Origin: a virus
Taxonomy: Duplodnaviria > Heunggongvirae > Uroviricota > Caudoviricetes
Length of the DNA: 61,412 nucleotides
Direction: 5' to 3' (one strand)
IMG/VR virus record: IMGVR_UViG_2563366956_000010
The position numbers were made by a program. Numbering within the stretch: position 1 is the first letter of the stretch; each line of letters begins with the position of its first letter. Below are positions 6,001-8,283 of this stretch, in pieces.

Positions 6001-8283
6001 ATCCAGACCTGATTTGTTGCTGAGTATCGGTAAAAGAGCGGCTTATAATCTATTCTGGGGTTTGAGGGCCAATGGAACGAAAACGTACGTTTATGGTATA
6101 ACTTATTGATTATAATACAGTATACAAAGGTCCCTTTTCAGGGACCCTTTCGTATGTTGTAGCTGATTTTATTTTCTTCTTTTCTTTTGGGTGCTTTTAA
6201 TAGCCATATATGATGTTTCATATAAAGTTAAAAGTTTCCCCATCTGTCTATCTATAGCGTCATGTTTTTCAGGATTTCTTAATTTCTGCAGCAGTTTAGA
6301 TATATATTTCGCAGGTAACTTTATTATTAATGAATTATGGGATTGATACATTTCCTTTGTCCAATCTAAATCTTTTCCTGATTTCAATACCTCACTCTCA
6401 TCTCTATTAATTATAAAACCGAGCTTTCCATACGGACCTGTTAAATATGATTGTAATTGTCTATACTCAGATGGACCTAATTCTTCAAAATTTTTAGCAT
6501 CAAAAACAACTTGTCTTGTTTTATAGTCCTCCAATACTCGTTTCCAAAAATCAGATTTGCCACCATTGGTGCCTATAATATCTCGTCTCTGAACTGCGTT
6601 ACCATTTGGATGGGACTTGATGTCTGTTAGGTGGGATGCAAATACTATTCTTAGTGCGTCTAAACACCATTGTTCAAATTCAGTGGCACCTTCATTTCCT
6701 ATCGGTATCTGATCTAGATGAGTAGTTATTTGACCTATTGTTTTATTTCTAATGGCTGAATTATCTGAAATAATATTAATATCATATTCGTCATTTATCT
6801 CCTCTGCTTCCTCTGGAGCAAGTGCATTACGATTTAGATTCAAACCAAGCCAGTAACATGGATGAATTAATAATTTCTCATTACTTTCAAAACCTTTATC
6901 TGGAGTTCGCCCGTCATGGCAAAATGAATAGGATGAGGTGTTTTTATCACGAATACCAACAAATCCTACACTATACAAACTTTGGAGAATTCCACTTGCC
7001 TTTAACAACTGTATTTCAGACGTTATTTTAGGATCTCCATTTTCTTCGATTAATTCGAAAGATGCTTCTATTTTTTTTAAGCACGTATAAACTGTTAATT
7101 CAGGTTCAATGCTACGAAATGCACTAGTTATAACCTGTATTGAAGGAAAGATCTTCTGATACTCTTTCCAGAGATCTTCAAGTCTGGCCATGGAAATTGA
7201 CTTGGCTGCATATTCTAGGTCAGTGTTTATGATAGTTTCTCTATTCTCTCTGAATGCGGAAAAAAAAGCTTCATTCAACAATGATAGTAAATCCCTGGGC
7301 CGGTAAAGGGTAAATTGCAAACATCGCTTAAAACCATTCCTCCCTTTAAGATCATCCGCTGTGCATCTATCCCAAACTCGTTGATCTTTCTCAATATCTA
7401 GCTTAAATGCTACTTTCATTCTTTTAGCTGACAGCATTAGGAGTTGTGCCCAGTCCCAATGCAACCTTATGACTTGACCCTCTATATTTCTCGAGTAATC
7501 AGGATCTTCCTTTGATAGCGACCTAAATATATTATCCCTTAAAAAAATTATTGGACGAATGCATTTTGCTTTTTGATTTAATTCAATAGATGCATATGCT
7601 AGACCTGCAATGATTCCAATTCCTATATTATCCGGTTCATACGCCTCATCTAGCTTATCCATTAATATGACAACTTTCCTGTCTGAGCGTTCAAGAAGTG
7701 ATACTATATTATTTTCTATTTCTGAAATATTCAAATTGAATTGAAGATCACCAATTGATTCTTCTGGGTTATTTTCATCTAAATACTCCTTTGCGACAAG
7801 CCTACACTTTCTTAAAATGTCACCTTGTGCAGAACTCCATTTTTTCAAATGTTCATTCAACAATGTTTCTGATGATATTTGAGATGACAATTTGTAATGA
7901 GATGATATATATGATGCTATCTCCATTAGCATAGCGTATCGCCATAATAGTCTTGTTGCTGCCCTTGCTAAATTAAATGATCCTGTAAATGGTTTCAACA
8001 TTGATCTGAAACCAATAATTTGAGAATCGTCTGGTGAGAAACTCAGGATTAATATTTTTTTGTCTTTCTTCCAATGCTCATTTAGCTGAATAAATAAAGC
8101 ACTTTTACCTGTCCCTCGTCTACCAACAACAATGGTCCTGTCATCAGTTTCAATTAGAGTCCTAAAGTCAGCAGTTTCAATGAAAGCATTACTCAACATC
8201 TTTTTATCATTTTCTGCTGTCGTATCACCAAACGGATTAGACTTTGAAGTAATATTCAATTCCATATTCAACCTTTTATGTTA

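Follow-up and report, generated by a model that had tools for sequence, protein, structure and literature searches.

A Passenger Gene of Tn1000 Encodes a Predicted Initiator-Type ATPase Joined to a FokI-Like Nuclease Domain, a Candidate Stand-Alone Defence Protein

Introduction

Few mobile genetic elements have been studied as much as the transposon Tn1000 (gamma-delta) and the F plasmid, yet a third of the transposon codes for a protein of no assigned function, TnpX. The DNA analysed here, IMG/VR virus record IMGVR_UViG_2563366956_000010 (61,412 nucleotides; hereafter, the window), carries a complete copy of Tn1000 at positions 6057–12037 (5,981 bp), which is 99.9–100% identical to the copy in the F plasmid and to those in many other plasmids. 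The gene tnpX (6169–8265, minus strand) occupies the stretch between the delta-end terminal inverted repeat and the resolvase gene tnpR, i.e., the part of Tn1000 that is not taken by tnpA, res and tnpR, as the original prediction had described it. TnpX is predicted to comprise an AAA+ ATPase of the ORC/Cdc6 clade, a winged-helix-like middle domain and a C-terminal FokI-like nuclease domain. The reading that we favour, with a probability of roughly 55%, is that TnpX is a stand-alone, trigger-activated defence nuclease, which is regulated by ATP and travels as cargo of the transposon. It is built on the folds of these domains, their intact and conserved catalytic motifs, purifying selection on the gene, the solitary and mobile distribution of the family and its fusions to domains of immune type.

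The name tnpX is a label in the Tn1000 reference sequence X60200, with no function attached (PMC6340991). The databases call its product "hypothetical protein", "ATP-binding protein" or, lately, "P-loop ATPase, Sll1717 family". The suspicion that the gene is uncharacterised thus held: the records carry generic labels alone, and no functional study was found in the literature. Residue numbers follow the 700-residue version of the protein, which begins at a TTG codon, and all features within tnpX are encoded on the minus strand.

The C-Terminal Nuclease Domain

Residues 520–665 (6277–6714) form the predicted FokI-like PD-(D/E)xK nuclease domain. A separate model of residues 496–700 is confident (pLDDT 86, pTM 0.83), and the order of its helices and strands is that of the PD-(D/E)xK core (alpha-beta-beta-beta-alpha-beta). 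Its best fold matches are Type IIS, Type ISP and modification-dependent enzymes (FokI, N.BspD6I, LlaBIII, AspBHI, MspJI); EcoT38I and HindIII rank with the last three of these, and the defence nucleases Cap4, Can2, Shedu, NucC and Avs4 follow. N.BspD6I and FokI were found independently with the model of full-length TnpX. Also, the PADLOC candidate model PDC-M36A matches residues 521–652 (E 2.4e-11).

The candidate catalytic residues sit where this fold places them, and their conservation was read from an alignment of 40 homologues that are 46–87% identical to TnpX, with a mean column identity of 63%. E533 (6673–6675) lies on the first long helix (526–543) and D564 (6580–6582) on the second strand (559–569), and both are present in 40/40 homologues. 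D591-A-K593 (6493–6501) is at the third strand (587–592), and Q605 and Y609 (6445–6459) are on the helix that follows. K593, Q605 and Y609 are each present in 39/40, whereas position 591 is divided equally between aspartate (20/40) and glutamate (20/40), the two residues that the D/E-x-K motif allows. The C-terminal pattern on which a nuclease tail had been proposed is indeed there (RRDIIG at 562–567 and VVFDAKNF at 588–595), and the proposal itself is strongly supported by the predicted fold together with conserved E533, D564, D/E591-x-K593 and Q605/Y609.

Scores from sequence comparison are lower. The Pfam family PDDEXK_3 reaches 14.8 bits, below its gathering score of 22, although the same match recurs in 11 of 21 family members. 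HMMER searches of PDB sequences with whole TnpX or with a profile of its C-terminal part returned nothing relevant (one chance match to RNase P), and hhalign of the C-terminal profile with the FokI cleavage domain, for which an approximate query sequence was used, gave a non-significant E of 0.39 and serves as a check of register only. It is the fold and the motifs, and not the sequence score, that place the domain in the FokI-like PD-(D/E)xK group; on that footing its assignment as a predicted nuclease, with catalytic motifs intact, is well supported.

The ATPase and Middle Domains

AlphaFold2 gave a model of full-length TnpX with a mean pLDDT of 82. In its N-terminal part this model has an AAA+ alpha/beta core with a helical lid, and the closest folds are among Cdc6, Orc1, DnaA, TnsC and MuB. 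A Foldseek search of the PDB places archaeal and eukaryotic Cdc6/Orc proteins on top (alignments to Cdc6 cover about 490 columns), next TnsC and BrxC of the BREX system; MuB, too, is one of the structures that the ATPase module resembles best. The NCBIfam model NF047389 (Sll1717 family) matches residues 14–477 over its entire length (model positions 1–454 of 454; 291.3 bits against a cutoff of 75). In Pfam, the ATPase part has matches to ORC-CDC6-like, AAA_16 and NACHT, all below threshold; that to NACHT (15.5 bits against a cutoff of 26.7) covers the P-loop only. The PADLOC candidate model PDC-M28C matches part of the region (residues 184–280). On the evidence of the model, the ATPase is thus placed, among AAA+ proteins, in the ORC/Cdc6 clade, i.e., it is of the initiator type.

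The motifs agree with this placement. A conserved N-terminal motif (residues 10–41, KSNPFGDTTAEND..., 8149–8244) matches the start of Pfam ORC-CDC6-like. The Walker A motif GRRGTGKS (residues 50–57, 8101–8124), which the original prediction had read correctly, is the same in 40/40 homologues, and a Walker B motif was likewise found about 150 residues further on: VILMDKLDE (residues 201–209, 7645–7671), at a spacing of 149 residues and with D205, D208 and E209 invariant. The strand that follows Walker B ends with the invariant R245-D246-N247 (7531–7539), probably the sensor-1 region; R250 is also invariant. At the start of the lid helix is R324-P-R326-D327 (7291–7302), again invariant, which would be a "PR" motif of the sensor-2 type, as seen in ORC/Cdc6/TniB-like ATPases. 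By its sequence, the protein thus has the residues that an active AAA+ enzyme should have: Walker A and Walker B, R245-D-N247, R250 and R324-P-R-D327. R245-D-N247, R250 and R324-P-R326 are the candidates for sensor 1, the arginine finger and sensor 2.

The ATPase had been taken for one of the ABC/OLD type, in part from the wide spacing of its Walker motifs, and this class is rejected at the level of the fold. A motif scan of the protein for [LFYIV]SGG[QEKR] or SGG found neither; Pfam gave no match to a Toprim domain; and neither list of best fold matches includes an ABC, SMC, Rad50 or OLD structure. The spacing of 149 residues is explained by a helical insertion of about 95 residues between Walker A and Walker B (residues 99–195, 7687–7977, from the secondary structure of the model), and not by an ABC architecture. 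This insertion may be a DNA-binding or sensor element. Structure prediction has therefore upheld the nuclease half of the earlier proposal and replaced its ATPase half, as the C-terminal part has the nuclease fold and the ATPase is Cdc6/Orc-like, not ABC/OLD-like. The general idea of a single protein of defence type that joins an ATPase to a nuclease is supported.

Between ATPase and nuclease the model has a winged-helix-like alpha/beta domain (residues 385–480, 6832–7119), into which the Sll1717 match extends. It is proposed to bind DNA. Within it a cluster of cysteines and histidines, C451-H452...H470-x-C472 (6856–6921), is invariant and may form a structural zinc site.

Conservation and Spread of the Family

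About 125 columns of the 40-sequence alignment are invariant, and these include Walker A, D205, D208, E209 and D564. Judged by this alignment, the conservation of the ATPase and nuclease motifs is far above chance. Comparison of tnpX with a 95%-identical copy in a Klebsiella species gave a ratio of non-synonymous to synonymous substitution (dN/dS) of 0.026; therefore, tnpX is a real gene under purifying selection. With catalytic residues that are invariant or nearly so, and with this dN/dS, TnpX is likely to be an active enzyme.

The family is thinly scattered. Counted at 90% identity, the clusters that match TnpX number more than 1,000, and the best 120 of them have the full length of about 700 residues, are 46–87% identical and come from Gamma- and Betaproteobacteria. 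An exhaustive search of 1.84 billion representatives returned 2,098 clusters, counted at 50% identity, at E ≤ 1e-3, 222 of them at E ≤ 1e-30. A survey of 185,579 species-representative genomes found full-length relatives in about 160, dispersed over Proteobacteria, Verrucomicrobiota, Planctomycetota, Acidobacteriota, Omnitrophota and other phyla. Among complete Escherichia coli genomes, they are present in 126 of 5,426 (2.3%), on plasmids and on chromosomes (73 of 131 places are chromosomal). An intact chromosomal copy is present in E. coli DH10B (NC_010473.1, 1391119–1393221) and in other laboratory derivatives of K-12.

tnpX as Cargo

The gene is a passenger of Tn1000 and not a core function of the transposon. 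Its GC content (33–37%, vs. 47–50% for tnpA) marks it as a foreign cassette. Further evidence comes from Klebsiella sp. BIGb0407 (locus L011), which has a Tn1000-like element with inverted repeats at 1501 and 7720 and about 83% nucleotide identity over tnpR-res-tnpA. Homology to Tn1000 breaks exactly at the tnpR/tnpX junction. In the place of tnpX are a Thoeris ThsB-type TIR gene (2560–3174, plus strand; Pfam 2.3e-19, PADLOC ThsB 2e-10) and an open reading frame of 235 residues without assigned identity (3215–3922, minus strand), while the 95%-identical copy of tnpX lies in inverted orientation 2.3 kb beyond the element (L011:10001–12103) and is adjoined by a tyrosine integrase gene (12421–13458). 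Thus, tnpX is a separate cassette, and a known type of defence gene can take up the slot that follows tnpR. Small serine recombinases have been described as general markers of adjacent anti-phage genes, in a study that does not treat Tn1000 (PMC13552941).

Clustering of the neighbours of family members in 89 loci revealed no conserved partner, be it an antitoxin, a methyltransferase or a second subunit; the largest cluster, of a generic ABC ATPase, comprises 8 of the 89 loci. TnpX would act alone or with host factors. Homologues are found in Klebsiella in an island with Type I restriction-modification and McrBC genes, in Serratia within an integrative conjugative element, in Ralstonia in a P4-like/prophage region where AAA_13 and AAA_23 genes adjoin, and elsewhere in islets flanked by insertion sequences and integrases. 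A full-length homologue of 44% identity is present on the unannotated 110-kb circular record of Klebsiella phage GArcari-2022b (CP101896.1, 87877–89925), with genes for an NYN+OST-HTH protein, a DUF4942 protein, an RNase H and a Dam methyltransferase as neighbours. Two unrelated genomes have, just upstream of the homologue, an open reading frame of about 101 residues with no Pfam match (L005:8107–8412 in Klebsiella and L006:9491–9796 in Paraburkholderia); clustering does not link the two, which are probably a coincidence.

In a few longer members of the family, the ATPase-nuclease core is fused to further domains: in four clusters to a PNP_UDP_1 nucleoside phosphorylase, at either end, and in others to a CHAT protease, a nucleotide cyclase (Guanylate_cyc) or a metallophosphatase (Metallophos). 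The fused members are P0178, P0193, P0206, P0214, P0140, P0138 and P0159. Phosphorylase, CHAT, cyclase and metallophosphatase domains are effector or signalling domains typical of immune nucleoside triphosphatases (NTPases). One of the systems validated by the DefensePredictor study (10.1101/2025.01.08.631726), DS-8, is a protein that joins NACHT to a metallophosphatase. Another member, P0150, carries a fused sigma-54 activator, which may be an artefact of gene calling.

Proposed Function and Its Alternatives

How TnpX would act as a defence nuclease can be pictured from two properties of its relatives. A FokI-type domain alone cuts one strand, and pairing is needed for a double-strand break; ATPases of the ORC/Cdc6 clade assemble on DNA in an ATP-dependent manner. 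The proposed mechanism puts these two together. The gene and tnpR would share weak transcription from the promoter in res, which resolvase represses, and TnpX would be inert as a monomer. A cue from an invading replicon, either a structure in phage or plasmid DNA or a protein, would lead to ATP-dependent assembly of the AAA+ part on DNA, for which the AAA+ and winged-helix modules together would be the route. Assembly would pair the FokI-like domains, which would then make a double-strand break, and cleavage of DNA would either destroy the invader or abort the infection. Protection of the host cell would, in turn, benefit the transposon and the plasmid that carry the gene.

Several points weigh against a defence role. 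A phage or plasmid phenotype for tnpX was not found in the literature, nor was work linking Tn1000 to anti-phage activity. Common coliphages plate on strains with F and on DH10B, and these strains accept foreign plasmid DNA very efficiently; therefore, tnpX at its native level of expression does not restrict incoming DNA broadly and constitutively. The protein shows no domain dedicated to sensing, such as TPR or LRR. No system in PADLOC-DB v2.0.0 matches TnpX over its full length, partial matches being all that were obtained, and membership of the validated system DS-41, described below, is rejected (54.3 bits against a cutoff of 370). By Pfam, the four nearest genes in 62 loci (n = 248) are very mixed and often housekeeping or unrelated, with integrases making up 5 of the 248, besides several transposases. 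Applied to 141 nearest neighbours, PADLOC found PD-T7-4, MzaA, LmuA, AriA, Ppl, MADS and PDC-S06 genes, but control genes 6.5–10 kb away gave a comparable count (HsdS, ThsB, Type II methyltransferase, mad5, PDC-S66), so that the support from the neighbourhood is moderate and not specific to adjacency. We read this as a minority of family copies lying in defence-rich variable regions, which is moderate support, not proof.

The same domains would also suit an ATP-dependent restriction enzyme without a methyltransferase, of a Type IV-like or McrBC/LlaJI-like kind, that acts constitutively on DNA entering the cell; in such an enzyme the AAA+ part would load on DNA and the FokI-like domains would cut at a particular modification or sequence. 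We consider this unlikely, notwithstanding a domain logic like that of NTP-dependent restriction enzymes, a nuclease fold nearest to FokI, N.BspD6I, LlaBIII, AspBHI and MspJI, a predicted winged-helix-like DNA-binding domain, 89 loci with no methyltransferase partner, and one homologue beside Type I restriction-modification and McrBC genes. DH10B, which carries an intact chromosomal copy, was built for very efficient acceptance of methylated and foreign DNA, and T-even phages, lambda and many others plate normally on strains with F. Moreover, the phosphorylase, CHAT, cyclase and metallophosphatase fusions are typical of immune NTPases that are activated by a trigger, and not of restriction enzymes. 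A constitutive mode of restriction is thus less likely than a trigger-activated one. We regard it as improbable, too, that TnpX is an accessory ATPase in the service of the transposon, comparable to TnsC of Tn7, MuB of Mu or IstB of IS21, which would choose or mark targets, confer target immunity or help Tn1000 and its plasmid to spread, e.g., by cutting competing replicons. Among the structures most like the ATPase module are TnsC and MuB, tnpX lies within the transposon 15 nt downstream of tnpR, and pairs of NTPases and restriction endonuclease-like (REase) domains are said in two articles (PMC5289972, PMC10853773) to be linked with transposable elements. On the other side, nearly all homologues are solitary, lie outside Tn3-family elements and have no conserved transposase or resolvase neighbour; the BIGb0407 relative of Tn1000 has its TIR gene in the slot and tnpX outside its inverted repeats; and the low GC content is that of a foreign cassette. 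Transposition in the Tn3 family needs only TnpA, the inverted repeats and TnpR/res, and in Tn3 itself the cargo position is taken by bla. A nuclease domain is missing from both TnsC and MuB, and their partners are the DDE transposases TnsB and MuA, not a TnpA of the Tn3 family. The obligatory tie of such ATPases to a cognate transposase is absent here, where there is no conserved neighbour in the 89 loci and the cargo of the slot is replaceable. The possibility raised earlier that TnpX would prove to be one of a family of transposition accessory proteins lacking a nuclease fold has not been realised, for the TnsC/MuB-like ATPase is accompanied by a nuclease domain and the family is mostly found outside transposons.

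A chromosomal factor for DNA repair, replication or recombination that Tn1000 has captured would account for the ORC/Cdc6/DnaA-like fold and for the many copies that lie between housekeeping genes. It is very improbable, as the gene is confined to about 160 of the 185,579 species representatives and to 2.3% of the genomes of E. coli, is patchy across phyla, is frequent on transposons, integrative conjugative elements, phage elements and islets flanked by insertion sequences, and has fusions to effectors of immune type. There remains the ABC/OLD-type ATPase-nuclease, like GajA of Gabija, OLD or AriA of PARIS, to which we attach almost no weight. The long spacing of the Walker motifs and a very weak PADLOC match to PtuA (E 0.008, P-loop only) speak for it; the former is due to the helical insertion, the LSGGQ-type signature and the Toprim domain are both lacking, and NCBIfam and Pfam indicate the Sll1717 and ORC-CDC6-like families instead.

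Relation to Known Systems

TnpX belongs to the Sll1717 family of NCBIfam (NF047389), although the name of the family says nothing of a function and its model ends ahead of the nuclease domain; a literature search found no paper on Sll1717. ORC/Cdc6-clade AAA+ ATPases are used in defence by BREX (BrxC) and RADAR (RdrA). BrxC, however, has 1,200–1,300 residues and no nuclease and is part of a six-gene, methylation-based system, whereas TnpX is solitary and has a nuclease of its own. FokI and N.BspD6I share the fold of the cleavage domain with the model of TnpX, with sequence similarity that is not significant, and FokI differs in having a triple winged-helix recognition domain, no ATPase and a partner methyltransferase. 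McrBC differs as a two-protein GTPase system. Sensors of the Avs/STAND type, such as Avs4, have a repeat-type sensor, and in the 700 residues of TnpX neither Pfam nor the model has a repeat domain.

A validated system of partial similarity is DS-41 ("AAA2" in DefensePredictor, WP_033812887.1), a single-gene anti-phage AAA ATPase of E. coli (10.1101/2025.01.08.631726). Both are single-gene systems and have in common an N-terminal NPF..TAEN motif and Walker A; by eye, a Walker B of the form DKLDE and a lid motif PR(D/E)L, like those of TnpX, can be made out in DS-41 as well. The score of 54.3 bits given above is that of the DS-41 model NF053860 (E 1e-14, best stretch residues 10–76), and hhalign aligned 56 columns (E 2.6e-5). 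DS-41 has 502 residues and was compared without its last 100 or so, and the significant alignment extends over about 60 residues only. The TnpX entry WP_000422420.1 was not found in those portions of the DefensePredictor tables that were covered, an absence that proves little.

A further parallel is with the Crinkler (CR/CRN) modules and their prokaryotic relatives, described as "NTPase + HTH + REase" (HTH, helix-turn-helix) by Zhang et al. (2016), as summarised in PMC5289972 and PMC10853773. In these sources, effectors that join a Cdc6/Orc-clade NTPase to an REase domain are a recognised class of conflict systems and are linked with transposable elements. The three domains of these modules come in the same order as in TnpX and their NTPase is of the Cdc6/Orc clade, a likeness by description; CRNs, unlike TnpX, are secreted eukaryotic effectors with N-terminal header domains. 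A paper that names tnpX of Tn1000 among NTPase-nuclease conflict systems, or that tests any member of the family, was not found in the literature. We put forward, as a tentative and rather doubtful extension of the defence reading, that TnpX founds a so far unrecognised family of immune nucleases, each a single protein, in which the initiator-like ATPase would sense a feature of invading-replicon DNA, such as a replication or packaging intermediate, would assemble with ATP and would cut through the pairing of FokI-like domains. Such a family would be the bacterial counterpart of the Crinkler modules.

If TnpX is a defence nuclease, then one has been present, unnoticed, in the F plasmid and in DH10B for decades, and it would be a hidden variable in F+, F' and DH10B, common laboratory strains that serve in cloning and phage work. 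The host on which the BASEL coliphages were isolated carries a pifA-deleted F plasmid (PMC11990801). Should that plasmid keep its Tn1000, these phages were pre-selected for growth in its presence, and panels of phages from F-carrying hosts may be blind to TnpX. Bacterial immunity would gain a compact, one-gene architecture of ORC/Cdc6 ATPase and FokI-like nuclease, with a link to the NTPase-HTH-REase modules of eukaryotic Crinkler effectors. Transposons of the Tn3 family would be seen to move immune genes in the slot after tnpR, as the Thoeris-type TIR gene of the sister element supports. Finally, an ATP-gated, FokI-like cleavage module could be of interest to enzyme engineers.

The tnpR-tnpX Region and the Tn1000 Copy in the Window

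The longest open reading frame of tnpX (6169–8271, minus strand) starts with TTG at 8271 and encodes 700 residues, the length first proposed. The frame is real and ends with TAA at 6171–6169, but the real start is most likely the ATG at 8265, which would give 698 residues, because the stop codon of tnpR (TAA, 8283–8281) is followed by AAAAGG, 6 nt and this ATG, and because the RefSeq entry (WP_000422420.1) has 698 residues. The choice of start leaves the finding unaltered.

Directly upstream and in the same direction is tnpR (8281–8832, minus strand), which encodes the gamma-delta resolvase of 183 residues. The junction between the two genes (8266–8280, minus strand) comprises 15 nt and contains AAAAGG as ribosome-binding site. 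A scan with promoter consensus sequences found no promoter-like site in this junction, so tnpX is probably co-transcribed with tnpR. The promoter of gamma-delta tnpR is located in res and is repressed by resolvase; the simplest reading would thus be a tnpR-tnpX operon that resolvase holds at a low level. The region between tnpR and tnpA (8833–8995), which we take to be res from established knowledge of gamma-delta, has a promoter-like site on the minus strand (8967–8939). A terminator-like element on the minus strand, consisting of a GC-rich hairpin (GGTCCCTgaaaAGGGACC, 6129–6146) and then TTTGT, lies 23 nt past the stop codon of tnpX and just inside the inverted repeat; the scan gives the palindromic stem of the hairpin on the plus strand.

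The remaining parts of the transposon are the delta-end terminal inverted repeat (6057–6091), the gene tnpA for a Tn3-family transposase of 1002 residues (8996–12004, plus strand) and the gamma-end terminal inverted repeat (12003–12037). No perfect 5-bp target-site duplication was found around this copy (ATTCT at 6052–6056 on the left, GATCT at 12038–12042 on the right), and its flanks probably stem from a Tn1000-mediated rearrangement rather than from a simple insertion. About 700 bp from the delta end, the operon for microcin B17 is present in full (mcbG, F, E, D, C and B; 453–5361, minus strand), and its genes were named by size and from the annotation of identical plasmids; the 6 kb with this operon is 100% identical in many conjugative plasmids of E. 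coli.

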